From positions 11,602 to 75,601 of the IMG/VR virus record IMGVR_UViG_3300042340_000194: DNA of 64,000 bases, one strand, 5' to 3'. Made by a program: the position numbers and the translations under genes. Of the stretch, positions 9,710 through 27,776 are shown in pieces. The stretch comes from a virus. Numbering within the stretch: the first letter of the stretch is position 1; every line of letters begins with the position of its first letter. The notes below the pieces were generated by a model. That model saw nothing but the letters and a program-made list of their open reading frames with translations. It searched no databases and was not told the origin of the DNA.

Positions 9710-10104
9710 TAGCCACCTCCGGTTACTCGGAATATGCCGGATATGAGTTGCTTAAGGTCTGGGCGTGAAGCTGCGTGCATGCTAAGGTCAAATACAAGCT
9801 CAAAACGCCCTTCTACACCGTTGAGGGTGGCTAGTGCTTGAGATCCGTTTATGATGCGTGGGTCTAGCGTGCTCGGGGAAAGTAGTCGCCCGGATACGTT
9901 GTAAGTGGTTTGGTCAGTACCTGTAGATGACTTCCAGTTTGGTGGTTGAATAGCAAGATGGGCTATGTATTCAACTGTCTCTTCGTTGTAGTTATAGTTG
10001 CCGGTATCTGTGTTTATAGTTAGTGTGGTGCCGGGTACTTGGAATGCAAGTATTGCGTTACTCCAAGGGCTGTAGGCGGCAATAGTTTGGGTATTGGGGG
10101 GCAT
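9709..10104 (-). CDS. head closure/head-tail joining protein (putative)
   Basis: 131 aa, beta-rich; synteny. Confidence 0.5.
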   Translation of the reverse strand: MPPNTQTIAAYSPWSNAILAFQVPGTTLTINTDTGNYNYNEETVEYIAHLAIQPPNWKSSTGTDQTTYNVSGRLLSPSTLDPRIINGSQALATLNGVEGRFELVFDLSMHAASRPDLKQLISGIFRVTGGG

Positions 10105-10298: not shown

Positions 10299-10799
10299 TC
10301 ATGGCGAAGAAAACGAATCCAACGCTTCGATCAATTCCGTTATGAACTGGCCCGGCAAATTACACCGAGTAATCAGCGCCAGCAGCTCTGACGCAAGGTC
10401 ACTTTTTTCTGCTACCGGCAGAGTGGAGCCTCCCAGAATCCACACGATGCAATCTAAGTAGTCTTTGTGATCTCCTCGATCTTGAAACGAATTTAACGCA
10501 GCAGATATGTTCATCGCGCCATACTTTGCTTCCGGAGTTGACGAAAGCGCTGCCGCAACAATGCTGACGTAGCACGGATCGCGCAGTCCTTCCCGGTATT
10601 CGATCCAGTCCGGCGGGGCGGGTGGTGCCGGCAAGGCCATCCATTCGGCCAGGTCGGCTTCGCTGGGCATAGGGTAACCCATGGCGTCCGCATCCCAGTG
10701 GTAAATCTCATCGGCTGTGCCATTAAACAAAACTCCCCAATCCACAAGCGACACCGAATGCGGGAAACGAGCGGCGATAGCTGCAGCAATTCCTACCAT
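10299..10799 (-). CDS. fibre-associated chaperone (XkdW-like N-terminus)
   Basis: IYHWD..PMPSEADL motif; directly after the fibre gene. Confidence 0.4.
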   Translation of the reverse strand: MVGIAAAIAARFPHSVSLVDWGVLFNGTADEIYHWDADAMGYPMPSEADLAEWMALPAPPAPPDWIEYREGLRDPCYVSIVAAALSSTPEAKYGAMNISAALNSFQDRGDHKDYLDCIVWILGGSTLPVAEKSDLASELLALITRCNLPGQFITELIEALDSFSSP

Positions 10800-13829: not shown

Positions 13830-14744
13830 TCAGGGTTTGTCCATCGCCATGACGGATCGGGGGAAGTAGATGGCCACACCACCGTGGCGGGCGTGGGCGG
13901 GAACGGTATATTCCAGGCCCTGGAGTTGAGGAGGGAAAAACTCCAGTGGCTGGGGGAGGTGCATCTCCAGCTTGTCCGGGTTACGCTCATAGGTCATGAT
14001 CCGGTCTTTAGACAAGAACCCGCCGGATTTAGAGGCAGTAAGCTCATTGATGGGTTCAATGTCCTTAATAACCTCGTTGGTATCGAGGAAAAACTCCATG
14101 ACAGTGGTGTCCGAAGCCGTCCCGAGCTTCATTGTGGAGATCTTTCGGAACACATTGTACGGAACCAACATGGTGTCTGGTTGTTCTTTCATGTTGCTGT
14201 TCTCGACGATCCGGGTTACCGGTTCATTGAGGAGTTCGAGAACTTCATCGGCGGTGATGCCGGACGTGTCGAACCACTTATCAGGTACGATCTTGTCGAG
14301 TTGATCGGAGTTGAAGAAGCCGCGAAGGCCGGCAGCAGGATCTCCGAAGTAGGAAATGCGCTGCATAGTTTCTTCATAGACGCGACGCACAGCGTTAGCG
14401 CGGCGTTGCTCCAGGTTTGTGTTGGGGACTTCAGCCGCAGCTCGCAGCTCCTGGACGGTGTAGCCAAAGCTGGAACCGTAGGATTCAACCTTGTGGGTTA
14501 CTTCCTTACGGAACACATCAGCGCGGGGGAGATCCTTTGCCTTATCGGCAATTCGCCGCATGGAGCCTTGTTGGTCGTAGATCCTATATGTGTAGGAATC
14601 CTTCCCATTAGACACCTCGCTGTTAATGGGGAGTACACTAGCGTATTTGATGTCGGCATACTCGACTTCAAAAGCCCTAGTGATGATATGCTCAAGTTCC
14701 CTCGCGAGGAAGAAACCGTGGTTGTCGAGGCGTTGGTTGGACAT
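13830..14744 (-). CDS. major capsid protein (DUF2184/encapsulin-like HK97 fold)
   Basis: FLARELEHI, DLPRAD, GYTVQELRAA and GGVAIYFP motifs. Confidence 0.9.
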   Translation of the reverse strand: MSNQRLDNHGFFLARELEHIITRAFEVEYADIKYASVLPINSEVSNGKDSYTYRIYDQQGSMRRIADKAKDLPRADVFRKEVTHKVESYGSSFGYTVQELRAAAEVPNTNLEQRRANAVRRVYEETMQRISYFGDPAAGLRGFFNSDQLDKIVPDKWFDTSGITADEVLELLNEPVTRIVENSNMKEQPDTMLVPYNVFRKISTMKLGTASDTTVMEFFLDTNEVIKDIEPINELTASKSGGFLSKDRIMTYERNPDKLEMHLPQPLEFFPPQLQGLEYTVPAHARHGGVAIYFPRSVMAMDKP

Positions 14745-14816: not shown

Positions 14817-15440
14817 TTAGGTGTCGGCGGTGAAGGTCGCGGCGGCCATCTCGATCTCCAAGACAGCCAGGCCAGCCCCGGTGGTCTTGGTGATCCAGCG
14901 GGCACCGTTGGTGAACAGGGTCGTCCGGGTGCCGGAGGCTGTTTTGCAGAACCTTCCCAGGAATGCCCCGGCCACGGTGCCGGAGTGGTCGGTATCCCAG
15001 AACCTGACAGCATCCGTCAGGGCCACGGCCTCGGTGACGTAGACCCAGATTTGGCCCCGGCGGATGACGTTGAGCGACTTCCGGTTGGGGTAGCCAGGCC
15101 GGCCATCGGCGGCCAGGTTGGTCCCTGGGATCCCGGCCGATAGATAGCTGGCATTGCCGGAGGTGACCCCTTCGAATGTGAAGGAATCCGCCAGGATGCC
15201 GAAGTTGCCGGTGACCCCGGTGGAGAGGGTCATGGCGTTATCGTCTCGACCGCCGGCTGTATCTACCTGCACCAAGGCTCCAAACGGCAGCGCCGCGCTG
15301 GTCTGATTGATCCCGGTGAAAGAGTCGTAAGAGTTGAGATTGGCCAGCATCCCTTCATGGGCACCAGCGGAAGTCAGGGGGTATGAACCTTGAACCCCGA
15401 TAGGGGAGGTTACTGTGGTTGGGGTGAAAGTTACAGGCAT
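14817..15440 (-). CDS. capsid decoration/cement protein
   Basis: LPFGALV and LNVIRRGQIWV motifs; between scaffold and capsid genes. Confidence 0.75.
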   Translation of the reverse strand: MPVTFTPTTVTSPIGVQGSYPLTSAGAHEGMLANLNSYDSFTGINQTSAALPFGALVQVDTAGGRDDNAMTLSTGVTGNFGILADSFTFEGVTSGNASYLSAGIPGTNLAADGRPGYPNRKSLNVIRRGQIWVYVTEAVALTDAVRFWDTDHSGTVAGAFLGRFCKTASGTRTTLFTNGARWITKTTGAGLAVLEIEMAAATFTADT

Positions 15441-15488: not shown

Positions 15489-16799
15489 TCATCGCCTCTT
15501 AGAAGCAGTCAGCGGTTTCTGCCAACTATTGTTGGTTTTTTGCTTGTAGCTATCGGAGGATGCTGCAGCATCGCGCCGTTGAACCCCGCGAAGGGCCGTG
15601 CGCAGCTTGCCGGTGGAATCGGCAGCATCGGTTCGGGGAGCTGGTTCGGCCTCGGGGGGATCTTCGGCATCAAGCGTGGCCAGGGCCCCCTCAACCCGGC
15701 CCCTCATTTGGGCGACTTCCATCTCCTCATCTGGGGCCTCACCGAAGATGTTTTCGTATGCTTGGACATACAACTCATCGGCCTCGATGCCGTCGAAGAC
15801 GAAATCGTCTTCAAAGGCGGGTGCGAGGAGTTGAAGAGTGTCGAGGCGGGCGGCTACTAGGGTGTCCAACCGGGAGGCTGGGATTTGAGCGAGAACCGCG
15901 TCGATGTTGTCTTCATCGAGGTGAATCTCACTGGGTTCCCCGGCATCAATCGTGGCCTGGAGCCCATCGGCCCGCCCTTCGGCGATCTCCTTCTCAGCCT
16001 CCAGGTCGGAAAAATCACTCTGCAGGGTATTTAGCTTTTCCTGCAGAGTGGAATTAGCAGTGCGCAGTTCAGTAAGGGCCTTGCTGGAATCCCTCACATA
16101 GGCTTGCACCAGCGGAGCATATTCAGAGGCAACCTCAACATCGACTCCATCGAGATTGATACGGGCCATAACGGGGTTCGCGGGGGGTACGGGCTCGGGG
16201 GAATCGAGGAGTGCTTGATCAAAAGATACCGCTGCCGTAGAATCCATTCGATCTAACAGCAACCTGACTTCTGGGCCAGCACGTCCTTTAGGGACAATGG
16301 CGATGTGGTTGACGCGGATATTGCGTTGGACACCGTCATAGGACTCGCCTGATGGTGTTTGACCGGGGGTAGGGTCATAATCGACTCGGTAGCCGGCGGA
16401 TACTTCTACAGCGTGATCGGGAGAATCTTTACGTTGGATGTTGTCGATGGATTTTTGGTCAGTGACAAGAAGCGCGACTTCAACAAAACCGTCGCTGAAG
16501 TGGACATGCGAGCCGGCATGCCCGATTTGATACATCTTTGTATTATCCGCATCAAGGAGCTGCGGAGGATGACGCCAAGTAACTGGCTTCATCCCGAAGG
16601 ATGCTAGGGTTTCTGGCTTTCCTACTTCCTCTTCCGGGCGGTACTCAGTTTCGACCCTGCCGTCAGCGCGGCGATATTTCTGGAGGCCAGTGCGGGCGGT
16701 GCGGGCCCGGACCTGGAGGTATCCCGACTCCGGGTCGATCTTGCAGCCGACGATAGGCAGCGAGAGGAAGTCGTATCGGGTAGCTGTTGCTAGGCTCAT
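15489..16799 (-). CDS. DUF2213 prohead protease/scaffold
   Basis: GYL..ARTGLQKY, YRPEEEV, EVSAGY, NIRVNHIAIVPKGRAGPEVRL; acidic coiled-coil C-terminus. Confidence 0.9.
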   Translation of the reverse strand: MSLATATRYDFLSLPIVGCKIDPESGYLQVRARTARTGLQKYRRADGRVETEYRPEEEVGKPETLASFGMKPVTWRHPPQLLDADNTKMYQIGHAGSHVHFSDGFVEVALLVTDQKSIDNIQRKDSPDHAVEVSAGYRVDYDPTPGQTPSGESYDGVQRNIRVNHIAIVPKGRAGPEVRLLLDRMDSTAAVSFDQALLDSPEPVPPANPVMARINLDGVDVEVASEYAPLVQAYVRDSSKALTELRTANSTLQEKLNTLQSDFSDLEAEKEIAEGRADGLQATIDAGEPSEIHLDEDNIDAVLAQIPASRLDTLVAARLDTLQLLAPAFEDDFVFDGIEADELYVQAYENIFGEAPDEEMEVAQMRGRVEGALATLDAEDPPEAEPAPRTDAADSTGKLRTALRGVQRRDAAASSDSYKQKTNNSWQKPLTASKRR

Positions 16800-16835: not shown

Positions 16836-17885
16836 CTAGTAGCTTTTTAACAAAGCGGTCTCTAAACTTCTGTAATAACCTTTTACAACTTTGTCTACGT
16901 GATCGGTTTCATAAGTGCGCAGCGCGTTTTCTAGAGGATCCCATTGAGGAGCCCAACGCCTTTCAAATGTTTCTACTGCGTATTCTGATAAACCTACGCG
17001 GCGTGGTACTTGAGTAAGCTCGTTGATGAAATCGCGGGCGCTAGTTCGATTTTCTGTAGCGAACTCAGCTAGGCCGAAGTCGATGAATTTAAGGCTTCTG
17101 GTTTTTGGGTTAAACATTATGTTTTTTAAGTGCCCATCGTTGTGTACGAGACCACTAATGTGTAAAGAGCGATAGAGGTCTAACATTTGGCGTTTTAACT
17201 GTAGTGGTGCGGTGTATTTAAGCGAGAAAATACTAGAACTTACCCCATGCGTAGATAAAGGGGAATAATTGTTCAAGTGCTCCATGACCAATACCCGGTC
17301 AGTAGCTTTGTATAGCTGAGGGGATGGCACATTATTGATGTTAGCGTGCCTTAGTATCTCACCTTCAGGGAGTAAGCTTTCTGTGGGGCCGCTCAGGAAT
17401 TTATTAGGTGTCCCCCCGAGGTCGTTGTTCTTTAAGTATTTTATACCGTATTTATTAGACGGGTGGACAACATAATTACCGTAAGCACCTTGGCCCCCTA
17501 GACATCGTGGAGTCGGAACAAAGTCATCTTCTCTAATCCAGTGATCAATCTTGGATGCTGCACATGCAATTGCGTTGGCTTTCTTGTTATCTTCAAAGAC
17601 ATCCCACTGTTTGCCGCGCTTCCGCGCCTCAGCTTCGATCCGATCCCAGTCCTCACCAGGGGCGGTGAATCCCTTCCAATCGGGGTCGCGGCGAACGAAA
17701 CGGCGGGCGGCGGAGATGCCTAGGGCTGCGATCCCGGCCCCAAGGGCGACTTTGCCGATCAGGCTCGGGGTGATTGTTGGATTAGAACTGGGCGCAGTGG
17801 TCTTTTTGGAGCATTTCTTGTTGTCTGGTATGCCTGACGCACCGCATTTTTTGTCGAATCTTAGTGAAGCGGTGGTTATGGGCAT
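16836..17885 (-). CDS. protein-kinase-like effector with N-terminal RxD-Cys motif and hydrophobic helix
   Basis: GGQGAYG loop, IKY lysine, LVMEHL, HNDGHLKNIM, IDFG. Confidence 0.8.
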   Translation of the reverse strand: MPITTASLRFDKKCGASGIPDNKKCSKKTTAPSSNPTITPSLIGKVALGAGIAALGISAARRFVRRDPDWKGFTAPGEDWDRIEAEARKRGKQWDVFEDNKKANAIACAASKIDHWIREDDFVPTPRCLGGQGAYGNYVVHPSNKYGIKYLKNNDLGGTPNKFLSGPTESLLPEGEILRHANINNVPSPQLYKATDRVLVMEHLNNYSPLSTHGVSSSIFSLKYTAPLQLKRQMLDLYRSLHISGLVHNDGHLKNIMFNPKTRSLKFIDFGLAEFATENRTSARDFINELTQVPRRVGLSEYAVETFERRWAPQWDPLENALRTYETDHVDKVVKGYYRSLETALLKSY

Positions 17886-17939
17886 GATTACCGGTGGTAT
17901 GTATGCTATTCTAGCGAGGCACCTGCGTGGACACTTGTC

Positions 17940-18413
17940 TTGGGTTTTATGGATAGAGAGACTCTGGTCAAGCTAAATGGCGATGTGGCGCAGTTAAAAG
18001 GTATTATGCAGCCTTTTAATGATGCTGCCGCTCAGGCCAATAAAGGTTTTATTGAGCTTGGGCGTACTCTGAACTTAGAGGCCCAACGGCGCAATGCCAT
18101 CTTGCGAGCATTGTTTTATTCATCGGTCAAGGCCGCATCACCTACTATTGGGCGTAAACGTCGCGCCCGCAGGGCTAGGGGAAGGCGGCTAGAGGTCAAG
18201 GCAGGAAATAAAACCAATAACGAGTTTCAGTCATACGACAGTGTCTGTCCTCCGATTAGTTCAAACCATATTGCGATCAGCGAAGATGGCGAACTCAGTT
18301 TTGTTTACCGTGCTCATATTGAGCACACATCAGGAGTGACTCCTGATGGGTCAGAATATAAGGCCATTGTAAGATCAATAAAACCAATCAGTGCTAGGAT
18401 TAAGGCGTTATGA
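17940..18413 (+). CDS. hypothetical protein with Arg-rich motif
   Basis: First gene of a plus-strand cassette with overlapping stop/start junctions. Confidence 0.55.
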   Translation: MGFMDRETLVKLNGDVAQLKGIMQPFNDAAAQANKGFIELGRTLNLEAQRRNAILRALFYSSVKAASPTIGRKRRARRARGRRLEVKAGNKTNNEFQSYDSVCPPISSNHIAISEDGELSFVYRAHIEHTSGVTPDGSEYKAIVRSIKPISARIKAL

Positions 18414-18679
18414 TATCCCCACTCCTCATGATAGACTTTGTAACCGTACAAACCACTGTAGCATTTGAGTTGTACATGGACGAACCCGCTGGTGGGTCTA
18501 GCCTAGAGGATCTAAATACTAGGATCTTAGTATTTAGAGAGAAGCTTATCGAGATTTATGGTTGCAATCCTGCAATTCTACGTGTAGTGGAACACCCTTT
18601 CTGGATACTTAATCCAGTGGCGGATCAGCCATTTAATCTAGTTAAACCACGCTCTTATTTTTCAAACTGCCATGTTTAA
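18410..18679 (+). CDS. hypothetical protein
   Basis: ATGA overlap with the upstream gene. Confidence 0.5.
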   Translation: MISPLLMIDFVTVQTTVAFELYMDEPAGGSSLEDLNTRILVFREKLIEIYGCNPAILRVVEHPFWILNPVADQPFNLVKPRSYFSNCHV

Positions 18680-19013
18680 GGACGACCTAGGGATAAACAT
18701 ACAAAATGCTGCTTGCAGTACTACAGGCATGACTGCTGATGAAATGCTTGAACTACTAAATGAGCCGGTTACGCGCATCGTAGAGAACTTTAACATGAGG
18801 GAGAAACTGGACACTATATTGCTCGATTCTAAGCAGTTTGCGTCTATATTATCTGAACGCACCAAGGCGGCAATGAATCGCGTCTATCACAATACGAGAC
18901 CTAACTATCTACCTATCTTTGTTAACGCCTCCCCCACTATTGGACGTAAACGCCGCAACCGTCGCGCTCGGGGGCGTAAACTAGCAGCTAATCGCCAAAA
19001 AGCTTGTGCTTAA
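18672..19013 (+). CDS. hypothetical protein containing a major-capsid-derived segment and Arg-rich motif
   Basis: TADEMLELLNEPVTRIVEN matches capsid TADEVLELLNEPVTRIVEN. Confidence 0.65.
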   Translation: MFKDDLGINIQNAACSTTGMTADEMLELLNEPVTRIVENFNMREKLDTILLDSKQFASILSERTKAAMNRVYHNTRPNYLPIFVNASPTIGRKRRNRRARGRKLAANRQKACA

Positions 19014-19611
19014 GAACGACATCTGGATAGGACAGCAAGCTGCCGCTGGGATGATCGAGCCCTATCAGGAATGTCTGTTGCGCCGCATTGAAACCTGGGA
19101 GGATAGCATTCTACAAGTAAAGCCGGTGTTGTCTTTTGGTGTTAGCAGTTATGGCTATGACATCCGGCTGTCGGCTCAGGAATTTATGACCTTCCGCCAT
19201 GTCCCTGGCACGGTGATGAACCCCAAGCGGGCCAATCCCGCCAACCTGGAGCCGGCCCCTCTCCATCAGGACGAGGATGGGCGCTACTTCATCCTGCCGG
19301 CGCATACCTACGGCCTCGGGGTAGCTCTGGAGAAATTGCGGGTGCCGCCGAATATCACTGTGATCTGCTTGGGGAAAAGCACTTACGCCCGGTTGGGGAT
19401 CATTGTGAATACCACGCCGGCAGAAGCGGCATGGGAGGGGCACCTAACCCTGGAGTTCAGTAATTCTTCTGGTGCTGATTGCCGTATTTATGCCGAAGAG
19501 GGTATCTGCCAACTGCTTTTCTTTGAGGGGGATCCCTGTGAAACTACTTATGCGGATCGGAATGGTAAATATCAATATCAGCCGGAACTGGTGACATTAG
19601 CAAGGGTTTGA
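19006..19611 (+). CDS. dcd: dCTP deaminase
   Basis: SSYGYDIRL, GKSTYARLG, TPAEAAWEGHLTLEFSN, YADRNGKYQYQ; picocyanobacterial type. Confidence 0.95.
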   Translation: MLKNDIWIGQQAAAGMIEPYQECLLRRIETWEDSILQVKPVLSFGVSSYGYDIRLSAQEFMTFRHVPGTVMNPKRANPANLEPAPLHQDEDGRYFILPAHTYGLGVALEKLRVPPNITVICLGKSTYARLGIIVNTTPAEAAWEGHLTLEFSNSSGADCRIYAEEGICQLLFFEGDPCETTYADRNGKYQYQPELVTLARV

Positions 19612-19641
19612 TTCTTACTTTATTGTGAAACATAATTAAGG

Positions 19642-20532
19642 CTATCGCAGCCGATTTCCCACACGTCTTGTCAGGCGGGGCGCATTACCTAAGTACCTAT
19701 CCCAGAACTTGTTGTAGGCTTGCTGTGTGGGAGCGTTTTTAGTAAGCCCGGTCTCCTTGATCAGATCAGAGAATTTCCTATGTTCTATAGGATCTAGTTT
19801 ATTCAGCATGTAGTTAATGTGGTCCATATCATTGCGTAGACCTGAAGTAGGCATGAATTTGATCGGCTTGGCGTAGCCCCAGTCGATCAATTTAACATCG
19901 CCATCCTTGACCATAACATTACCCAGGTGCATGTCTCCATGTGCGTACCCGGCCTTATGCAGCTTCGACATCTCTAAGACAAACTGCTTCGCGTAGCGGG
20001 CCTTCTCCTGCTTGGTTCCGCTTTCTACGATTTTGGTTAAGTTCTTGTACCCGTCCATGTACTCGATTTGAGTTATAGATCGCGCCGAATCGACAGCTAG
20101 GACATTCGGAGTGTTGATGCCCTTATCGTGTAGTTTGGCCTGCAGCGTGACTTCACGCAGGAACTGTCGCCGCCCGACAAGGGTTTTCTTGAAGTTTGTC
20201 TTGAAGACTGATTTACGATCCGGGGAGACGTGAATGGCCCCGGCATAACCTTTGGCTAGGAACTTACTACCTTTGGGGAGATTTTGCGGAGTTGATAATG
20301 CAATAGCTTCCTTGAAGGCACGTTCAATTGCAGGAGTCCATCTTCTCCTGTTGAGCACTCCTACAAGAACGACTCCTGTAGCTACGGCTGCGGTGGTTGT
20401 TCTCGGGGTTATGATACCTCCTGAGCTGCTTGCAGGGGCTACGCTTTTTCCACACTTCTTGTTCGCTGCAATGCCGGATTTCCCGCACTTCTTATCCAGG
20501 CGCAGCCGCGCTGCGGTCAGTTGCAATTCCAT
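19642..20532 (-). CDS. second protein-kinase-like effector (RIO/Bud32-like) with RxD-Cys motif and hydrophobic helix
   Basis: AKGYAG loop, VFK, REV, EYMDG, HGDMHLGNVM, LIDWG. Confidence 0.85.
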   Translation of the reverse strand: MELQLTAARLRLDKKCGKSGIAANKKCGKSVAPASSSGGIITPRTTTAAVATGVVLVGVLNRRRWTPAIERAFKEAIALSTPQNLPKGSKFLAKGYAGAIHVSPDRKSVFKTNFKKTLVGRRQFLREVTLQAKLHDKGINTPNVLAVDSARSITQIEYMDGYKNLTKIVESGTKQEKARYAKQFVLEMSKLHKAGYAHGDMHLGNVMVKDGDVKLIDWGYAKPIKFMPTSGLRNDMDHINYMLNKLDPIEHRKFSDLIKETGLTKNAPTQQAYNKFWDRYLGNAPRLTRRVGNRLR

Positions 20533-20843
20533 TTCCGTAACGACTTATTGATCCGTGAATCCTGGTTATTAGCGGTTTTCGCGCTGGTTAGCTTACGCTT
20601 CATTCCCGACATGCGGGCACAGAACCTCCGTCGTCTTTCTGCTCTCGCTGATCCGGGTTTGAGCTTGGAGGGGTCGGTCGTTACCGCGAGGGAGAGCTTC
20701 GAGCCTGGATGTTGCTTGCGGTAGGAGGCGATGCCTGCGGCGTTAAGGCCGCCCTCGGGGTTTTTGCCTTCCTTGCGCTGCCAAGCGGGGGATTTGTCAA
20801 GGCGGATGGTTAGAGGTGTGAGTAGTCCCACCTCAGTTACCAC
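20517..20843 (-). CDS. conserved basic phage protein (DUF6321-like)
   Basis: AWQRKEGKNPEGGLN..RRRFCARMSG..SLRKWNC recalled from cyanophage proteins; preceded by RLD. Confidence 0.6.
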   Translation of the reverse strand: MVTEVGLLTPLTIRLDKSPAWQRKEGKNPEGGLNAAGIASYRKQHPGSKLSLAVTTDPSKLKPGSARAERRRRFCARMSGMKRKLTSAKTANNQDSRINKSLRKWNCN

Positions 20844-21669
20844 TAAAGAGCCTGCGCTTCTGCCTAATCAGCCCGATTTGGGTTTTACGCGCAGCGCGGC
20901 GTGTTGAAGCAACCCCAGCTTGGGCTTTAGCCATTGTTGTAGATACTGCAGCTTTTGTCGCCTTCCGTACTCTCGCTTTAGATGGAGGTATAGCGCCTTG
21001 AGACAACATCCCCCGAGCTTGTTTGTTATTCATAGACCGTGCCATACTGGCTTGTGAGTTGCTAACTTGATTTGTCCATGGGTCTGGAATGCCACCAGCG
21101 GAATTGGTAGGGCGAGGATTGGACATGCGGCTAGTCACACGTAAGTTTTTCGCAACTCTTAGGTTAGACATAGCATTTTTCTGCATTCCTCGATATTTCA
21201 TAGCACCCACTGTACCTGCAGCAATACTACCAGCAACGGCGGCTACTTTAAGGCCGGTCTGGACGTTTTCATTACCAAGGGAGGATTTTACAGTACCGAC
21301 TAAGCCTTTAGTACACTTTTTGCCTTCAGCAATGCCGGAAGCACCGCACTTCTTGTCCTCTCTTACACTCAACACACCACGGATATAATTCTTACTGTGT
21401 TTATTGATTCCAAGTTCACAAGCATCAAGATATTCCATAGGAGTAAGTACAGCGTCCATTGCTGCTTTAGCTGCGCAGCCACAAGAGCCACTCTTCTTAC
21501 CCTTCTTCATGCAAGCGGCACAAGGCTTCTTACCTTTCCCGTGGGGGGCATCACCGTACTCGGGGGACTCTCCCTCCTCCATCTTCGAAGACTCCATTCC
21601 TTTCCCCGCAGCGCTGCCCTCGGCGGCCTTTTTACGACCCTTTTTAAGGAATGCTGCGGGGATCGGCAT
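20833..21669 (-). CDS. basic protein with internal RxD-Cys motif and hydrophobic helix
   Basis: REDKKCGASGIAEGKKC followed by VAAVAGSIAAGTVGA; K/R-rich tail. Confidence 0.7.
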   Translation of the reverse strand: MPIPAAFLKKGRKKAAEGSAAGKGMESSKMEEGESPEYGDAPHGKGKKPCAACMKKGKKSGSCGCAAKAAMDAVLTPMEYLDACELGINKHSKNYIRGVLSVREDKKCGASGIAEGKKCTKGLVGTVKSSLGNENVQTGLKVAAVAGSIAAGTVGAMKYRGMQKNAMSNLRVAKNLRVTSRMSNPRPTNSAGGIPDPWTNQVSNSQASMARSMNNKQARGMLSQGAIPPSKARVRKATKAAVSTTMAKAQAGVASTRRAARKTQIGLIRQKRRLFSGN

Positions 21670-21701
21670 GGCCTGGGTAGATAGGGATTCTCCCCCTCAG
21701 G

Positions 21702-22280
21702 TTACCGTTGAGGCACAGCCGGCAAGATTCTATGCACCCAGGCCCTCTTTAGGTTGTAATCAGGTCGGCGATCGTACCATTGAGCAGCGTCCCAAACACT
21801 CACGCTGGGCATGCACGCAGCATAGATGGTTTTATCGGAATAAAACCCGTCGTAGAATGTGGACTTGGGGTTGTTATAGGTCCAGCTAGGGCCGTCGAAC
21901 TCCGACCAAGGATCTTTGACATTGAAGGCATAAGTGGCGTCCGCTTTCAGTTTCACACCATCGAGAGCAATAACATGCCCAGATCCGGTGAAATAGCCGT
22001 GAGTGATGAGAAACTCACCAGCTTTTAGATAACCAACAATGTCATTGAGCGAAGCGGTGTTGTTGTAGATATACCGGTCACCGATATAACCACGAATTAC
22101 TTTGCCCATGTTGGTAGTATCCCCCGCCGCACCAGGCAGGCGGTTCAATTTACGACGAACACCTAGCACGTCTTTATCACCTACCGCCATCGCAATGCAG
22201 GCGGACTGACATGTAGAAGCGTCAGGCTGGGAGAGGTTGAGTGCGTGGACTGTTGTTTTCCACTCTTGACTGATGATCAT
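21702..22280 (-). CDS. C39-like cysteine peptidase, candidate endolysin
   Basis: Q..TCQSACIAM, GHVIAL and KDPW (Cys-His-Asp); next to a two-helix membrane protein. Confidence 0.65.
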   Translation of the reverse strand: MIISQEWKTTVHALNLSQPDASTCQSACIAMAVGDKDVLGVRRKLNRLPGAAGDTTNMGKVIRGYIGDRYIYNNTASLNDIVGYLKAGEFLITHGYFTGSGHVIALDGVKLKADATYAFNVKDPWSEFDGPSWTYNNPKSTFYDGFYSDKTIYAACMPSVSVWDAAQWYDRRPDYNLKRAWVHRILPAVPQR

Positions 22281-22328
22281 GACGATAATTAAGGATAAAG
22301 AGAGAAAAAGGGAGAGGTGGATGTGTGA

Positions 22329-22580
22329 TTAAGTGACCTCGTCCTCCTCACGAGGTTTGCGAAGAGCTGGGTTATATGTATTAAAACCATTCACGAAGCC
22401 AGCCTTCTCAGCCATACTTTTCATAAAAGGAACTCCCATAATAGAGCCACTGACAATCCAACAGCTAGGCCACCCACCAGGCAGGGTGGGGGAATGTTCG
22501 CAACGGATTAGAAAACCTACGCCGAATATAACTGTGGCTACGACAGGAACAGTCAACACCTTTGGCCAGCGTATTTGCAT
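22329..22580 (-). CDS. small membrane protein, candidate holin
   Basis: Two hydrophobic segments and charged C-terminus; likely start MQIRWPK. Confidence 0.45.
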   Translation of the reverse strand: MQIRWPKVLTVPVVATVIFGVGFLIRCEHSPTLPGGWPSCWIVSGSIMGVPFMKSMAEKAGFVNGFNTYNPALRKPREEDEVT

Positions 22581-22599
22581 TTTGATTGGGTGTGGCACT

Positions 22600-25500
22600 T
22601 TAGTTAGAGGAAGTGGCGGGCTCGGGGGGAACTGTCTTAGCTCCGGTGGCATTCTGCTGTACTTCAGCTCGCAGGGATTTACTACTACGCTTTACCTTGT
22701 TAGGATCGTAACCTCCGTACCATACATCAATCATACGATCTTCAATTTCTGAGCGTAGTTGAAGTAGTGCTTGCTGCTTATTTGTGCTAAGAGCTTTGAT
22801 ATACCGACTTTTAACATCTCTACTTTTATTACCAAATAAAACTTGTAGATCACCCTCTATTGGTTTATCGCTGGCTATACGCCATACCATTTCATTAGTC
22901 AACTCCTTTGAGCGGGCACGGTCCACTGTTAAATAACTGTGTGCCTCTTTCTGTAACTGCTTATCTAATAAATAACTATCACCAGCCTTAAAGTATTTTC
23001 TCCAGTTAGCCCCAAACTCTGGGTTATTAGGATCAATTTTTTCGCTAAGTCCATGAGGAATATTATTATTCTGTAACATGCGCACCGGACTGCTAGCGAA
23101 CGCACGTTTACCCATAGTTGCGTAAAACACATCTCCTTTGCTGACCCATGTTCGCATATTCTCATCTGTATGATTAAACACCCCGAAAGTGGGGCCTGCT
23201 ACATTAACAACTTTGACATCTCTATAACCCATTTCGGCTAGAATAGCTAATGTTTCCGACGCCACATTTCCCCCATTGCTGTAGGCTAGCATGTGGACAG
23301 GCTTGCCGGTTAACCGCCGTTGTGCTGCGACAAAAGCTGCTGCACGTACTGCATCAGGATTAAACCCACGAGTTTCTATATTACCTCGCAAATAATCCAT
23401 CTGCTTAAACGCATTCTTCATCTCTATACCCATAGTAACCGGCTTCTGAGCTACTTTAGGGAGCATACCTATGCGGGCTTTCCGCGTCTTCATGTCTAGA
23501 TCGTCGGCACCTTGCTTAATAGGTTGGGAGATTTTGTTAGCAAAAGGGAGTATATCATGCTCGCCCCAGATCTCCCGAAAAGCTCCACCTTCAGCCATCA
23601 AATGACTACCTTGACCACGCTTAGTAAAAGTACCATCGTCTGCATAAGAAAGCATGACCACTGCGCCTTTGCTATTCTGTGTTTGCCCGTAAAATGCTGG
23701 GGTATTGTCCATACCACTAAACCCAGTATCATATCCTTTATCTTTGAAGTTGTAAGTAGATGCTTCAAACGGAGTAACGTCTTTGACATCCTTACCTAAA
23801 CGCTTCGCCGCTTTTTCGTTAAACTCGCGCACCATATCCTTAGCCATAGCCTCGGCGTCTATAGCAGATCTGGACACATTTCTCCTATAGGCGAATACCT
23901 GCTGAGATTTCACCCCGAGTGCGAGCCCTACGGCTGTGGCAGCCACTGCTCCAGCACCGATAGCCACATTACGGAGAGTATTGTCCTTATCTTTTGGGAT
24001 TGCTGCAGATTGCCCACCTCCGCCAGAAGCGGCTTGAGCGGCCAATGTTTTCTTAGAGCAGTTCCTATTATCAGGAATACCGGATTTACCGCAGCGCTTG
24101 TCCTGCCTAATAGTCGCAGCGAAAGCCTGGAAATAAGCATCACCGCGCTCGGGGGGCTTTCTTGCTTCCATGCGGCGGCGCTGGATTACTACGCGGGCAG
24201 CCGCCTCCGCTGACTTCTGGTTTTTATATAAAGGCTTGCCATTAGGCAATGTCCTATCCATTAGGGCTTTAAGCACGTCTAGATAAGACTGCTGCTCCTC
24301 TACATTAGTAAATTTGAAACTCTCCCTAGCCCGTCGAGGACGGTTCATCGGAGGTATCGGCGGAATAGCTCTACCGGTACGTGTGTTTAGCTCATTAGGG
24401 GGTCTTATTTGAAGCCCTTCGAATGCACCGGTCCCCCTGAGTATTGTCAAAGCTTCGGAAGGGTCTTTGATCGGCCTACCTGCGTGCTCTGAGGCAGCCT
24501 TTTGGATAGTCAGGCTCGGGGCAGACCATATCGTATTGACACTGGCGGGAAAGCCATTAGTTTGGAAATAATGCTGGTTAACTAGATCCGCAGAGTATGG
24601 GCCTTTAACCGCCTGCCTACCTGCTGTAGGGTAGAGCCGCGTAGCAAAGAACTCCGCATGCCCCTGCATCGCGTTCTGCATTACTGGGTATTGGTCTAGA
24701 GGTACGGATTTCCTTAAGCCTGTTGGCCCATAGACTTTAGGTAAAGAGTTAATAATAGACTCGTAGAAAGTATCATAGCTTGAGATTGTCTTACCATAGA
24801 TAGTTCTTGCTGTGCCAATTGCTCGGAAATTGGGGTGCAGCGTACCTAGGAGCTGGCTACGGGCTTGTTCTCTGGCTGCTGGGGTTAGCTGTTGAGCATC
24901 GAGCAGCGTGTTAGCTAAGCTATGGCGATCTTCTAATTTACCTAGGTTAAAGCCCCGGTCTTTCGCGTAATTAGTCAACGTTTTATGCTCAGCATCCAAT
25001 TGATCTGCGATCTGCTGCACCAGCTTCACGCCTGACACTTCAGCCCCGCCAGTCACCTTGTAATGAGTTCTGAGGAAATCCTCCCCCGAGAGCGTCGCGA
25101 ATTGATAACCGTCACCGACTCTATAGATTTGCTGCTCTTTCAAGCGTGGCGTGCTCCACATCGCTTTGTATGAGGCTTTATGCCACTCACCAAAGTCTGT
25201 GTAGGCGCTAGGACTTACATTTTTAACCCGCTGGCCGACAGCCGAAAATGGGGAATAGTCTAAAGGACTGGTTTTAAGAATATCAGAAGTATCGGGTAAT
25301 CCGTAGTTTCTACCAGCTACTGCTCCTACGCCATTGCGACGGCGCACTAATTCAGCGACAGCATTACGAGCTTCAGTTTTGGTACGCGCACGCGCCGGAT
25401 GTAGATCTAGCACCGAATGCAGTGCATTACTTACACTGTCATCAATGTTTTTACCAATACCTTCCCTGTAGCTGCGGATATTGCTTAAGATGCCGTGGGC

Positions 25501-25914
25501 ACGAACTCCTCCCCCGAGTACGGCAAGAGCTACACCGATGCCTATAGACCCTTGAACTAGAGCAGCTTGTAGTTCTTTTTTCTTCTTAAGATCTTGAGGG
25601 GATGCTTTAACAGCACCGCGAATGACGGCTTTTCTACCGCCTTCTAATTCTGAGAAGTTACCAGTAGTTATGCCTTTTCTAAGGCGACCGAGCCCTCTTT
25701 GTGTGCTGGCGAGTGCAGCTAATGGATCACTACCTCTTCCCGCAGCTTTTAAATGTCCATCACCGCCTTCCCCCTTTAGCCGGCAATCCCATTCAGGAGG
25801 AATGCAGCGAGATCCACAACGCCGATTAGGCGGCTTACACGCAATGGTGTTTCGAGTCTTAGCGTCGATCCTCGATTGAGTAATCAGGAAAGTAGCCGTA
25901 CGAATGTTGGTCAT
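22600..25914 (-). CDS. 1104 aa putative polyprotein: two Cys-motif/helix units and a C-terminal alpha/beta hydrolase
   Basis: N-terminal RID..CKPPNRRCGSRCIPPEWDC; internal RQDKRCGKSGIPDNRNC; VHMLAYSNGG nucleophile elbow; occupies the usual MuF position after portal. Confidence 0.75.
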   Translation of the reverse strand: MTNIRTATFLITQSRIDAKTRNTIACKPPNRRCGSRCIPPEWDCRLKGEGGDGHLKAAGRGSDPLAALASTQRGLGRLRKGITTGNFSELEGGRKAVIRGAVKASPQDLKKKKELQAALVQGSIGIGVALAVLGGGVRAHGILSNIRSYREGIGKNIDDSVSNALHSVLDLHPARARTKTEARNAVAELVRRRNGVGAVAGRNYGLPDTSDILKTSPLDYSPFSAVGQRVKNVSPSAYTDFGEWHKASYKAMWSTPRLKEQQIYRVGDGYQFATLSGEDFLRTHYKVTGGAEVSGVKLVQQIADQLDAEHKTLTNYAKDRGFNLGKLEDRHSLANTLLDAQQLTPAAREQARSQLLGTLHPNFRAIGTARTIYGKTISSYDTFYESIINSLPKVYGPTGLRKSVPLDQYPVMQNAMQGHAEFFATRLYPTAGRQAVKGPYSADLVNQHYFQTNGFPASVNTIWSAPSLTIQKAASEHAGRPIKDPSEALTILRGTGAFEGLQIRPPNELNTRTGRAIPPIPPMNRPRRARESFKFTNVEEQQSYLDVLKALMDRTLPNGKPLYKNQKSAEAAARVVIQRRRMEARKPPERGDAYFQAFAATIRQDKRCGKSGIPDNRNCSKKTLAAQAASGGGGQSAAIPKDKDNTLRNVAIGAGAVAATAVGLALGVKSQQVFAYRRNVSRSAIDAEAMAKDMVREFNEKAAKRLGKDVKDVTPFEASTYNFKDKGYDTGFSGMDNTPAFYGQTQNSKGAVVMLSYADDGTFTKRGQGSHLMAEGGAFREIWGEHDILPFANKISQPIKQGADDLDMKTRKARIGMLPKVAQKPVTMGIEMKNAFKQMDYLRGNIETRGFNPDAVRAAAFVAAQRRLTGKPVHMLAYSNGGNVASETLAILAEMGYRDVKVVNVAGPTFGVFNHTDENMRTWVSKGDVFYATMGKRAFASSPVRMLQNNNIPHGLSEKIDPNNPEFGANWRKYFKAGDSYLLDKQLQKEAHSYLTVDRARSKELTNEMVWRIASDKPIEGDLQVLFGNKSRDVKSRYIKALSTNKQQALLQLRSEIEDRMIDVWYGGYDPNKVKRSSKSLRAEVQQNATGAKTVPPEPATSSN

Positions 25915-27776
25915 TTAACGTCCTCGGGGGCGGGCTTGAGCGTGAAGATCGTCTGCTCGGGTAGAAAAGCCGCTAAGCCTTTCCTAGCAGCCCGGAGCGA
26001 GGCATAGCCAGTAACCTGCGGGCCAGGGAGGATCGCCCCATCGAGCTTAATGGTGGAGTTGAGCAGGGCATAGCGCCGGGATCGGCTGGGCCCGAGCAAC
26101 ACCAGGCCGCCAATATCCGGGCCTGTTGCGTCGTTCCGGGTAGTGGTCCCCACCGGATAGCCCAGGCTGGCGCCGTCTTGATGCTTGATCACGTCGATGG
26201 TCAAGCCCAGAGCCTCGTAGCTGTCGGTCTTGGGCGCGGGCTTCGCCGGTTGAGACTCTTGAGACGCAGGTTGAGACTGGCCAGGGACCTCGCCGCCCTC
26301 GGGGGGAATCGGCTGGCCGTCTGGTCCTAAACCCTGCGCCTGGAATGCTTGTGCTTGTAACTGATTCATATTGTTCTCAAACATGCTATCCTCTTGCATT
26401 TGTAGCTGGGCAGATACGTTCTCGTCCAGCACAGTCTCAATACTGTATTCCGCTGAGCCGTAGCGATTATTTCTAATTTCTATAGGACTTAGCACTCTTA
26501 ATGCTGCATAAATATTGTCTATTTCAGCTCTGGACTTCTGTACAGCGAGCTTCTCCGTGGCGGTCTCAACGAACACCGAGGGGAACGAAATTTCCCACGA
26601 TTCTGGTGGGGTGCCCCGCATGGGACTGTCCTTGGCCCGCATGAAAAGCTCAAAAATATCGGAAATAGGGTCTTGGCAATAGACAGTCTGCCAGTCCTCT
26701 ACTAGAGAGGCCCATACTCGCTCTTCAAACCGCCCTTCTTTCCCGAGGCCGCCAGGACTGGTGCCCATTAGAATTGACGCAGGCCAACCAGTAGTAGCCT
26801 GCATGTACTCAGCAAAAGGTGCGGTGGCTTGCGCCATGTTACTGAGGGATCTTTCAGCAAAGCCTATCTCTTCATTCGCGTCTATTAAGAATCCTCCATA
26901 GGAGGATCTAGACATGTTGTTTATTTCCATGCGTTTCATCACCTGATTAGCGTTACCGGCTCTCACCATCTCCATTAACCCTGGCACTTTATGCCAAAAC
27001 AAAGAAGAGTCTGTAACACTAGAAGATAATCCTCTAATGGACGTTTCATACAGTTTCCATGAATCCCATACTACTTGTAATGGTGCTTGGCCCCAGCCTT
27101 GTTGTTGTTGGCGCTGTCGCCAGGGTAGGTACAGTCCATCAAAGCGGCTAACTCTAGTGTGATGGATACGCATATTTGTTACAGGGCTTTTCTGGTTCTC
27201 GTCTAATTTTTGATTAGTAGTAATTCTGTACATCTCGGGTTTGGAGTAGTCCATAACGGACACGTCCATGGGAAATATTTCGTGGCGTGATAACGCACAC
27301 AGCCCACGAATACCACGAATGCGGTCGTAGTTTACAGGTGTTTCCGGGTCTTCGTTGCCATCATCAACTAGAGCGACAATGACCGATCCGCCGTAGAGGC
27401 GTTGAAGGCGGACAGCTTCGGCATACACCCGGTGGAATTTCAACTGTTTAAGGTAGGCTTCAAAATCTGTGATCTGGTCAATCTCTTGGGAAGCTTTCCG
27501 GCCTCCTAGTTTAATTGTGACACGATGTTTGAGAACTTCATCGGCAATAGAATCGACAAAACGCCGGGGTAGTCCTACGGAGTAAAGAGCTTCGAGTTCT
27601 GGATGAGAGAGTAGATAGCTAGTCCGTATGCTTGTTGATTGGCTTCGGTCTTTACCTGCTATTCCCATGCCTGTAAAGGCATTGACTAAAGCTCCATCTG
27701 TACGCATGCCATCAGCATCGCTACGATTGCCGATAGCGACGGAATTATCGGGAGCTTCGGGAGATACTGATTTCAA
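25911..27776 (-). CDS. portal protein (DUF1073 type) with C-terminal extension
   Basis: RLYGGS, IHHTRV, LMGTSPGGL, WEISFPS motifs; follows terminase. Confidence 0.9.
   Translation of the reverse strand: MKSVSPEAPDNSVAIGNRSDADGMRTDGALVNAFTGMGIAGKDRSQSTSIRTSYLLSHPELEALYSVGLPRRFVDSIADEVLKHRVTIKLGGRKASQEIDQITDFEAYLKQLKFHRVYAEAVRLQRLYGGSVIVALVDDGNEDPETPVNYDRIRGIRGLCALSRHEIFPMDVSVMDYSKPEMYRITTNQKLDENQKSPVTNMRIHHTRVSRFDGLYLPWRQRQQQQGWGQAPLQVVWDSWKLYETSIRGLSSSVTDSSLFWHKVPGLMEMVRAGNANQVMKRMEINNMSRSSYGGFLIDANEEIGFAERSLSNMAQATAPFAEYMQATTGWPASILMGTSPGGLGKEGRFEERVWASLVEDWQTVYCQDPISDIFELFMRAKDSPMRGTPPESWEISFPSVFVETATEKLAVQKSRAEIDNIYAALRVLSPIEIRNNRYGSAEYSIETVLDENVSAQLQMQEDSMFENNMNQLQAQAFQAQGLGPDGQPIPPEGGEVPGQSQPASQESQPAKPAPKTDSYEALGLTIDVIKHQDGASLGYPVGTTTRNDATGPDIGGLVLLGPSRSRRYALLNSTIKLDGAILPGPQVTGYASLRAARKGLAAFLPEQTIFTLKPAPEDVK

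Follow-up and report, generated by a model that had tools for sequence, protein, structure and literature searches.

A cysteine-bearing motif ahead of interchangeable enzyme domains between the portal and protease genes of uncultured phages: a possible tag for head-incorporated effectors

The window (the whole 64,000-nucleotide stretch of viral DNA analysed) contains a cassette of minus-strand genes, overlapping or abutting from the portal gene onward, that is bordered by genes for the portal and for a DUF2213 prohead protease. These borders had been proposed from the letters alone (the sequence-only reading), and profile matches confirmed both. The portal-protease gap also holds a plus-strand island with a dCTP deaminase, and small reading frames beside the cassette genes (for instance, 22329-22652) gave no match in family searches. 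The features of the cassette are:

25911..27776, minus strand: portal protein, upstream border (PF06381, E 7e-53; phrog_146)
22600..25914, minus strand: 1104-aa post-portal protein with two tagged modules, its start overlapping the portal stop
25783..25872, minus strand: four-cysteine variant box, residues 15-44 of the 1104-aa protein, R-x-D ... C-x-PPN-xx-CG-x-RC-IPP-x-WDC
25504..25560, minus strand: hydrophobic helix 1 of the 1104-aa protein, residues 119-137, a helix in a low-confidence model
24385..25257, minus strand: all-alpha domain of the 1104-aa protein, residues about 220-510 (AlphaFold2 block, pLDDT 70-93)
24058-24108, minus strand: N-box copy 4, residues 603-619 of the 1104-aa protein
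23911..23976, minus strand: hydrophobic helix 2 of the 1104-aa protein, residues 647-668
22921..23676, minus strand: predicted alpha/beta hydrolase cargo of the 1104-aa protein, residues about 747-998, with S879, D928 and H954
20833..21669, minus strand: 278-aa protein with a Cys/Lys cluster, N-box (21313-21363, residues 103-119), helix (21199-21255) and basic tail
20517..20843, minus strand: DUF6321 protein (PF19846, E 3.6e-17), a recurrent cassette companion that starts R-L-D-K
19642..20532, minus strand: predicted 296-aa kinase with N-box (20452-20502, residues 11-27), helix (20353-20400) and kinase domain (19858-20199)
16836..17885, minus strand: predicted 349-aa kinase with N-box (17811-17861, residues 9-25), helix (17706-17762) and kinase domain (17043-17456)
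15489..16799, minus strand: DUF2213 prohead protease with a scaffold-like tail, downstream border (PF09979, E 7e-44; phrog_530)

Four of the minus-strand genes share a cysteine motif, here named the N-box, with the pattern h-R-x-D-K-K-C-G-x-S-G-I-x4-K-x-C in four copies, plus one four-cysteine variant. A six-frame regular-expression scan of the 64 kb located the four copies listed above and no further copy, and both the near-identical motif in four genes and the variant opening the 1104-aa protein were recovered where the sequence-only reading had seen them. A degenerate DNA pattern for D-K-K-C-G-x-S-G-I matched three times in the real sequence and never in 100 shuffles. Synonymous differences separate the four copies at the DNA level, and the peptide is therefore the conserved entity. 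The core consensus is R (93%), D (98%), K-K, C-G, S (81%), G (75%), I (96%), K (87%), C and K (89%), and the common form has two cysteines with 5-7 lysines around it.

In the case of the variant, whose consensus was drawn from 50 distinct copies, R15, D17, C26, C33, C37 and C44 are invariant across 24 homologues, and the gene after the portal always opens with this form. The cysteine spacing is C-x6-C-x3-C-x6-C, and the segment is modelled, at low confidence, as a small beta-hairpin. These four invariant cysteines, the lysines flanking the common form, and the example of SPP1 gp7, a MuF-type DNA-binding protein bound to the portal (PMC5576092), would suit a metal- or DNA-binding knuckle acting as a mere structural joint or DNA clamp, and as neither an address nor a cleavage site. 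Such a role is improbable: the two cysteines of the common form are too few for a single-chain metal site, and the placement of the box is odd for a simple joint, as an N-terminal N-box has its start codon at a fixed 13-14 residues before the first Cys, and in stand-alone tagged genes a conserved 8-residue leader (M-x-L-T-P-x-x-h) precedes the R.

The domains that accompany the N-box in the window are unrelated to one another. The all-alpha domain of the 1104-aa protein found no convincing match in a fold search of the PDB and BFVD, and the C-terminal 425 residues of the same protein have no Pfam match, even at E 10. The AlphaFold2 model of this C-terminal cargo gave a best Z of 13.4 (rmsd 3.2, 158 residues aligned), with the top 50 matches all being alpha/beta hydrolases and 366 chains reaching Z>=8. 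S879, D928 and H954 are invariant in eight aligned sequences, and the model, with a nucleophile elbow and these Ser-Asp-His candidates, predicts an alpha/beta hydrolase fold. The 296-aa protein matches Pkinase at 40.7 bits (cut-off 31.7), as well as RIO1 and Kdo, while the 349-aa protein reaches 32.7 bits against the same cut-off and matches ABC1 too. The catalytic motifs H-x-D...N and D-[FW]-G are readable in both translations (H-N-D-G-H-L-K-N with D-F-G in one, H-G-D-M-H-L-G-N with D-W-G in the other), and both proteins are predicted on these grounds to belong to the eukaryote-like protein kinase superfamily. Family searches with the 278-aa protein gave no match, and DUF6321, a separate gene here, is fused after a tagged module in the relatives P0063 and L014. 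The cargo named by the sequence-only reading, two kinases, a basic tail and an alpha/beta hydrolase, thus stood up to these searches.

A profile of 71 positions, spanning the N-box plus helix, was searched as that reading had proposed, and found 152 protein clusters among 1.84 billion representatives, with E down to 1e-32 and 32 clusters at E<=1e-10. Many clusters have 2-4 motif copies, and all ten whose origin was looked up come from metagenome-derived sources only. The N-box is absent from the Pfam, NCBIfam and PHROG families searched, was not found in any cultured phage, has no description in the literature searched, and matched only once in genomes of 185,579 species. The carriers are a clade of uncultured long-tailed phages of roughly 63-75 kb, probably with cyanobacterial hosts. 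The N-box is thus supported as a real and widespread module.

The N-box is linked to the head operon in practically all related loci. Among 16 viral loci with both border genes, 64 of the 66 boxes lie between portal and protease, on the head-gene strand; the remaining two lie in a post-portal frame whose stop-to-stop start extends back into the portal frame. A stretch of 4.5-10.8 kb with 2-7 boxes separates the two border genes. Loci from marine and freshwater metagenomes have the same portal-box-protease synteny as the window, and a homologue of the 1104-aa protein follows the portal in nearly all related loci. Among the contigs long enough to judge, the lone exception is the distant relative L036, whose tagged protein is encoded away from the portal, about 3 kb downstream of the capsid gene. 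The expected linkage to head modules elsewhere was therefore found, although it amounts to about one evolutionary observation, because all of these contexts stem from one phage lineage.

A Pfam scan of the 149 profile matches, together with per-protein architectures, bore out the claim that the cargo behind the motif is unrelated and interchangeable. DnaJ domains occur in 21 proteins, kinases in about 12, LRAT/NlpC-P60 domains in six, and ADP-ribosyltransferases and lethal-factor-like zincins in three each, along with several lipases and alpha/beta hydrolases; this mix resembles that of known injected phage and plasmid effectors. Modules occur both as separate genes and as fusions. For instance, the hydrolase forms a protein of its own in relative P0104 and comes second or third among the modules elsewhere, P0042 joins cutinase-like, kinase and DUF900 hydrolase domains in one chain, and P0001 joins LRAT and DnaJ. 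The N-box is internal in 104 of 170 copies and N-terminal in 66. In relatives, modules close with a second motif, the C-box ((K/R)-R-D-S-[IV]-W-A-x-G-F), at the protein C-terminus or 7-9 residues ahead of the next N-box; it was looked for in the window and not found. As judged from sequence, a conserved, putative trafficking part joined to interchangeable C-terminal enzyme domains is the arrangement that defines polymorphic toxins and effectors.

Some of this cargo would also suit parts of an ejectosome, modelled on T7 gp14-16 and P22 gp7/16/20, that are packaged and ejected chiefly to open an envelope path for the DNA, the Gly/Ala helices forming a membrane conduit and lipase and NlpC/P60 domains breaching membrane and wall. 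The alpha/beta hydrolase is the most conserved cargo of the clade, LRAT/NlpC-P60 and lipase domains recur, and the composition of the Gly/Ala-rich helices (A 32%, G 18%, L 15%, V 14%) is that of oligomerising membrane helices. In long-tailed phages, however, the tape-measure protein usually does the envelope-penetration job, and a tape-measure-like protein of 1826 aa is encoded by the window phage itself. It is hard to see what kinases, J domains and ADP-ribosyltransferases would contribute to such penetration, and phages whose first box segments are 90-97% identical differ in copy number and content, making an ejectosome an unlikely explanation.

Every N-box copy in the window is followed by a stretch of 17-22 Ala/Gly/Val/Leu residues and then by Arg/Lys. 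The claim of a helix behind each motif copy holds for the window but not for the family, where a helix lies within 90 residues in 64% of boxes and a third of boxes have none; the helix is not obligatory. In the 349-aa kinase, the unit of N-box, helix and basic residues spans residues 9-66. The tripartite signal of sortase and exosortase substrates, which has the same order of elements, was considered and rejected, since that signal is C-terminal and the unit here is N-terminal or between domains, with cargo downstream. Hydrophobic helices are awkward within a DNA-filled capsid, a point that counts against packaging; T7 and P22 ejection proteins do contain them.

The helices look transmembrane-like, with 17-residue Kyte-Doolittle means of 1.5-2.1 (computed on near-identical copies of the locus) and basic residues on their flanks. 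They could be signal anchors of late accessory proteins that are never packaged and act in the producing cell, in superinfection exclusion, late host manipulation or lysis control, the N-box being a juxtamembrane metal-binding or oligomerisation element and the gap an accessory-gene hot spot. Some J proteins are anchored in the membrane, E. coli DjlA among them. The gap of S-CBS4, the nearest cultured relative, holds glycosyltransferases, a methyltransferase, an HNH endonuclease and a repressor, and, given also the dCTP deaminase island in the window, the slot therefore tolerates non-structural genes too. Nevertheless, this explanation is somewhat unlikely. It leaves unexplained why about ten enzyme classes with no relation to one another have one 20-residue box in common, why modules form chains in polyproteins and carry paired end motifs, and why a helix-free box lies between a MuF domain and a toxin, and the helix is missing from a third of boxes. 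Kinase, J-domain and ADP-ribosyltransferase cargo need cytoplasmic cofactors; with the very basic N-box inside, a helix inserted from the host cytoplasm would leave the C-terminal cargo in the periplasm, away from ATP, DnaK and NAD. Such a topology would make sense if the proteins came from outside the cell, or if the helix did not span the membrane.

The reading preferred here, with about an even chance of being correct, is that the N-box is a new tag for the head incorporation and processing of polymorphic ejected effectors, likened to MuF toxins and to the capsid-targeting sequences of T4 and P1. In MuF polymorphic toxins, a minor head protein of the PF04233 type carries a toxin at its C-terminus (Jamet et al. 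2017, PMC5576092). The 1104-aa gene occupies the corresponding slot directly behind the portal, here and in related loci, and the systems share a conserved head-associated N-terminal part and a variable C-terminal toxin or enzyme, ADP-ribosyltransferases included. In relative P0110, a Phage_Mu_F domain (44 bits, cut-off 29.6) is followed by an N-box without a helix and then an ADP-ribosyltransferase, which matches the layout known for MuF toxins (PMC5576092) except that an N-box sits at the joint; the comparison is therefore apt. No protein of the stretch matches Phage_Mu_F (PF04233) at E<=0.01, nor do the pieces scanned at E<=10, in agreement with the sequence-only reading, and the motif lies outside every described family searched, MuF included. 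Fold searches with a model of residues 1-600 of the 1104-aa protein gave nothing clear, a result that speaks neither for nor against remote homology to the wider MuF superfamily (MuF2-4 of Jamet et al.). The systems differ in that no fold relative of the post-portal all-alpha domain could be detected, each phage has several separate tagged genes rather than one, an N-box, often with a hydrophobic helix, stands ahead of each cargo, and the carriers are apparently non-integrated phage contigs, whereas MuF toxins are typical of temperate phages. Thus, of the non-MuF modular enzyme set proposed from the letters, the modular motif, the swapped cargo and the link to the head operon stand, and a universal helix does not.

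The capsid-targeting signals of T4 IPIII and P1 DarB are 10-30 residues long, and the 8-residue leader of the stand-alone tagged genes is comparable in length. In the case of P1, 30 residues are enough to load a reporter (PMC9024508). In T4, according to the work of Mullaney and Black as cited there, and in P1, a short N-terminal peptide common to unrelated head-internal proteins directs prohead entry, and the T4 prohead protease cuts the peptide off at a short consensus site. The N-box is longer, far more conserved, cysteine-bearing, mostly internal and usually followed by a helix. Polyvalent proteins carry several effector domains per polypeptide (kinase, ADP-ribosyltransferase, peptidase, lipase) and are thought to be delivered with DNA and then cut up, with zincin-like metallopeptidases proposed as processing agents; words for a cysteine motif or for transmembrane segments occur zero times in that text (Iyer et al. 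2017, PMC5512222). P0042, P0001 and P0110 likewise have at least two effector domains per chain, and the 1104-aa protein combines an alpha domain and a hydrolase, but here an N-box and a C-box delimit the modules, most of which are small genes of their own. As a further parallel, encapsulin cargo-loading peptides are short terminal peptides on unrelated enzymes that bind inside an HK97-fold shell. The C-box of relatives (D-S-[IV]-W-A-x-G-F) is a C-terminal tag of this style, except that the window lacks it.

Processing at R-x-D would resemble head proteolysis in phiKZ and SPN3US, where many head and ejection proteins have the same short protease consensus at their N-termini and between their domains (PMC7411985, PMC10052503). 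The protease family, consensus and phage type differ, and the putative site here is drawn from R-x-D statistics. The DUF2213 protease-scaffold protein has ten R-x-D against 2.9+-1.5 expected, the capsid protein and the protease keep one at residues 5-10 in all loci, and the 1104-aa protein has three in total, each at a module border. R-x-D is short, and the N-terminus could be conserved for reasons other than cleavage.

Under the preferred reading we infer four steps: entry into the head, cutting at R-x-D, insertion into a membrane and delivery. Each module of these polymorphic accessory proteins, which would be produced alongside the head proteins, would begin with an N-box, and the assembling prohead would take up any domain fused after it. 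The DUF2213 protease with its scaffold-like tail is the leading candidate for the partner in uptake and a candidate processing enzyme. Multi-module polyproteins would be split at or next to R-x-D to release individual modules, which would exit the capsid along with the DNA. Host proteins or the envelope of the next cell would then be the targets of the kinases, J domains, ADP-ribosyltransferases, lipases and NlpC/P60-like domains, with the Ala/Gly-rich helix keeping many of these effectors at the membrane or in an oligomer.

The window makes up the final 64 kb of an IMG/VR virus record that is 75.6 kb long and has a CheckV completeness of 100%, and includes a head operon transcribed from the minus strand, followed downstream by a candidate tape measure gene.

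Head operon and tape-measure-like gene of the window (position, strand, product)
28008-29504, minus strand, large terminase
25911-27776, minus strand, portal protein (PF06381)
15489-16799, minus strand, DUF2213 protease with a scaffold-like tail
14817-15440, minus strand, cement protein (PF22758)
13830-14744, minus strand, major capsid protein (PF09950)
974-6454, minus strand, 1826-aa tape-measure-like protein, with weak tape-measure PHROG matches near its C-terminus

The presence of the 1826-aa tape-measure-like protein downstream of the head genes indicates that the phage is long-tailed; if this protein is the tape measure, the tail would be unusually long. Among cultured phages, the closest portal is that of the Synechococcus siphovirus S-CBS4 (35% identity). 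A search of genomes from 185,579 species gave a single match, to a phage-like contig of 32.9 kb that had been binned with a Thermosynechococcus MAG. On the basis of these two relationships, the host is likely to be a cyanobacterium. Also present is an 851-aa protein (10793-13348, minus strand) in which an N-terminal DUF4054 domain, of the head-tail adaptor type, precedes a very long Gly/Ala/Thr/Ser-rich extension, with conservation in relatives limited to the first ~100 residues. Promoter and terminator scans returned signal at or below chance level.

The N-box, a cysteine motif led by R-x-D, is found in the window as four copies of R-x-D-K-[KR]-C-G-x-S-G-I-x4-[KN]-C and as one variant at the start of the 1104-aa post-portal protein, and a six-frame scan added no positions to those located by the sequence-only reading. 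A degenerate DNA pattern for the motif matched three times, versus no matches in shuffled sequence, and the DNA copies differ at synonymous positions, implying selection on the peptide. Each copy is followed by a hydrophobic helix and then basic residues, the helix being an Ala/Gly/Val/Leu stretch of transmembrane-like hydrophobicity. The earlier description of the cargo, that is, the domains fused behind the box, also holds: two kinases, both above the Pfam cut-off; a basic tail without a family in the 278-aa protein; and an alpha/beta hydrolase. In the case of the hydrolase, Pfam assigned no family to the final 425 residues of the 1104-aa protein even at E 10. The top 50 PDB matches to a model of this region all have the alpha/beta hydrolase fold (best Z 13.4), and residues Ser879, Asp928 and His954 are invariant, so that the predicted structure identifies the C-terminal cargo as an alpha/beta hydrolase fold. 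The first half of the same protein includes a confidently modelled all-alpha domain (residues about 220-510). Fold searches for this domain used the model of the whole of residues 1-600, and yielded nothing in the PDB at E<=0.001 with Foldseek, a single nameless match in BFVD (TM-score 0.09), and only helical-hairpin matches with VIA-align (residues 50-135, Z<=7.5).

Judged by its sequence distribution, the motif is a family rather than a local repeat. When 1.84 billion representatives were searched with a profile spanning box and helix, 152 clusters matched at E<=1e-3, and 32 of these reached E<=1e-10; the ten clusters that were looked up have metagenome-derived sources only, several on contigs of ~70 kb. 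The box itself is present in most profile matches, with two or three copies in 54 by regular expression. The core derived from 233 distinct copies is h-R-L-D-K-K-C-G-K-S-G-I-P-D-N-x-K-C-T-K-G-T, with the R conserved in 93% and the D in 98%. Sub-types include R-x-D-L-K-C-G-K-G-A-I-S-x-G-E-K-C, a form with a G-K-G-K-P insert, and a four-cysteine form, R-L-D ... C-x-PPN-xx-CG-x-RC-IPP-x-WDC-RLKGEG, that always lies at the start of the post-portal gene. Where the box is N-terminal, the start codon is 13-14 residues ahead of the first Cys, and a conserved leader, M-x-L-T-P-x-x-h, precedes the box. The helix is common without being obligatory: one follows within 90 residues in 109 of 170 boxes, compared with 24% for windows drawn at random from these proteins; the true share may be lower than 109 of 170, because the search profile contained the helix.

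The view that the N-box lies outside described families, MuF included, is supported at the level of sequence. Box segments had no match in Pfam at E<=10 or in NCBIfam at E<=1, no PHROG family identified with whole motif proteins covers any box, and MuF membership was rejected by a sequence test. A sub-threshold match of EGF_MSP1_1 to a box in one relative (P0006) was treated as spurious. Against 50,697 cultured-phage records, tblastn found no match, either with the 1104-aa protein or, at E<=1, with a 70-aa box segment; megablast of the motif region likewise found none, the ESM Atlas gave no usable match, and a full-text literature search for motif strings found no relevant paper. Cysteine motifs and transmembrane segments go unmentioned in both the polyvalent-protein paper (PMC5512222) and the MuF-toxin paper (PMC5576092).

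The range of cargo was surveyed with Pfam on 149 profile matches, since single-linkage clustering of cut-out cargo placed 250 of 368 modules in one cluster and was uninformative.

Cargo families among 149 profile matches (Pfam census, number of proteins)
DnaJ, 21
Kinase families, about 12
LRAT/NlpC-P60, 6
ADP-ribosyltransferase, 3
Lethal-factor-like zincin, 3
DUF6496, 2
DUF6321, 1
Phage_Mu_F, 1
Various alpha/beta hydrolases and lipases (Abhydrolase_1, DUF900, Lipase_3, cutinase, PGAP1, weak Tle3)

Modules also occur in chains. For instance, the relative P0042 reads cutinase-like domain, box, kinase, variant box and DUF900 hydrolase, and P0001 reads LRAT, two boxes and DnaJ. The hydrolase cargo seen in the window is a protein of its own in P0104, and in other relatives it takes the second or third module position. 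In P0110, Phage_Mu_F is followed by a box, a long low-complexity linker without a helix, and an ADP-ribosyltransferase; its source contig was not found among the viral or metagenome contigs. Many modules in relatives (e.g. P0053, P0043, P0074, L021:9381-9986 and L032:9767-10450) are closed by a second motif, the C-box, (K/R)-R-D-S-[IV]-W-A-x-G-F, which is positioned at the protein C-terminus, 7-9 residues ahead of the next N-box, or before a fused DUF6321 domain. The C-box, absent from the window, recalls in style the cargo-loading peptides of encapsulins. The DUF6321 gene of the window (20517-20843, minus strand) starts R-L-D-K-S-P-A-W. DUF6321 regularly accompanies the cassette, and in PHROGs it forms the C-terminus of far larger phage proteins (450-928 aa); no paper mentioning the domain was found. 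Two further elements recur in head-region proteins (L036:8711-10675, which is P0157, as well as P0062, P0038 and L025): a short motif with two cysteines, D-x-C-W-x-G-[FY]-x3-G-x-K-x-K-G-K-x-V-P-N-C-V-P, and a C-G-C cluster. In the window, the Cys cluster is present in the 278-aa protein at about residues 50-66, and the two-cysteine motif is matched by the functionally unannotated PHROGs 727, 9737, 4359 and 36547.

Genomic context was taken from 43 viral and 56 metagenome loci, with contigs partly shared between the two sets. The recurring order, all on one strand, is terminase, portal, four-cysteine-box protein, box genes, protease, cement and capsid. Sixteen viral loci include both borders; of their 66 boxes, 64 fall within the portal-protease interval, and the other two are in a reading frame whose stop-to-stop start extends into the frame of the portal. 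Of the 25 metagenome loci of at least 5 kb, 23 are flanked by a portal, a protease or both, the other two holding only the post-portal homologue. The motif is therefore linked to head modules elsewhere, in viral and metagenome loci alike, the sole different context being the related locus L036, where a 654-aa protein is encoded ~3 kb downstream of the capsid gene and consists of box, helix, LRAT, Cys cluster, C-W-E-G-F...P-N-C-V-P motif, second box, helix and DnaJ. The linkage is strong, and is phylogenetically non-independent because a related head module is recognisable in all of these phages. Phages with 90-97% identity in the first box segment still differ in cassette content; L005, for instance, lacks the 296-aa kinase.

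Other genes share this interval. In the window, the cassette is interrupted by a plus-strand island (17940-19611) with a 157-aa reading frame that includes a weak DUF2213-like piece, a 113-aa frame in which one piece resembles the capsid protein (PF09950, E 0.0035) and, after these two, a dCTP deaminase (19006-19611). The 157-aa and 113-aa frames end in a near-identical Arg-rich sequence, S-P-T-I-G-R-K-R-R-x-R-R-A-R-G-R-x-L, and may represent decoys or mimics of head proteins. A 192-aa protein (21702-22280, minus strand) appears papain- or C39-like by eye (T-C-Q-S-A-C ... G-H-V-I-A-L-D); it was rejected as a general processing enzyme, having no Pfam, NCBIfam or PDB-sequence match and occurring only in the closest relatives (L005-L013). 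In S-CBS4 (locus L048), the post-portal gene (9161-9823) has by eye a MuF-like Cys/His-rich C-terminal pattern without an N-box, and phmmer with S-CBS4 gp013, MuF-like by eye, matched none of the collected proteins. Elsewhere between its portal and protease, S-CBS4 encodes glycosyltransferases, a methyltransferase, an HNH endonuclease and a repressor.

What, then, does the box do? The best-supported reading, to which we give about an even chance, is that the N-box is a tag by which polymorphic ejected effectors are incorporated into the head and processed. This reading draws on the exclusive placement and tight coupling of box genes in the head operon, on the conserved tagged protein that occupies the slot of MuF, on the existence of a real MuF-box-toxin fusion, on cargo typical of injected effectors, and on modules that act as cut-and-paste units with paired end motifs. 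Set against it are the plainly non-structural genes that also lie in the portal-protease gap of S-CBS4 and the window, and the violation of the positional rule by L036. That the tagged proteins are parts of an ejectosome we consider distinctly unlikely.

The R-x-D that leads the box is a candidate cleavage site of the DUF2213 protease. It occurs 10 times in the protease-scaffold protein, versus 2.9+-1.5 expected, is kept within the first ten residues of both the capsid protein and the protease, and in the 1104-aa protein is found at module borders only. This pattern is coherent and, as circumstantial evidence, favours processing, with the brevity of R-x-D counting against the tag. That the cysteine-bearing box is a mere structural knuckle is the least likely of the alternatives. 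Co-folding of the protease-scaffold protein with a box-plus-helix segment, run without controls, scored 0.00 and is taken as no answer. The helix raises a further alternative, namely that the tagged proteins are membrane proteins that are not packaged, which seems unlikely: the topology, with a basic box, a helix and cofactor-dependent cargo, would be easier to reconcile with proteins arriving from outside than with insertion by the cell that makes them.

Polymorphic effectors that travel in the head and have a leader in common are of an already known kind, and the system of which the N-box would be part is functionally like MuF toxins, the capsid-targeting sequences of T4 and P1, polyvalent proteins, and the protease-site codes of giant phages. 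A sortase-type signal was rejected, as the box sits at the wrong end of the protein. New elements are the tag and its cysteine chemistry, the C-box that pairs with it, the helix, and some of the cargo. More speculatively, and with doubt prevailing, the N-box (with the C-box in relatives) might constitute an undescribed, sequence-defined cargo-tag system of an HK97-fold capsid, sufficient to load essentially any enzyme for release by the head protease, and evolved into a fast-changing injected arsenal for host takeover in abundant aquatic phages. In that case it would offer a portable means of packaging proteins in capsids and of bringing them into cells.

Phage proteins that are carried in the head and co-injected with the DNA govern the first minutes of infection, including anti-restriction, host shut-off and the start of transcription. 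Few loading signals are known (the T4 CTS, P1 DarB and MuF fusion), and these are short, weakly conserved and hard to find by sequence. The N-box, by contrast, is sharply defined and searchable, is found on about ten enzyme classes, among them J domains and kinases, which do not rank as classic phage cargo, and belongs to a widespread lineage known from marine as well as freshwater metagenomes. Should the box prove to be a loading and processing tag, metagenomes could be mined directly for a catalogue of injected effectors, the DUF2213 protease, so far uncharacterised, could be tested for its specificity, and the box would be a candidate tag for the packaging of foreign proteins in capsids. 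Even as a membrane-targeting device, it would represent an undescribed module common to phage accessory proteins.
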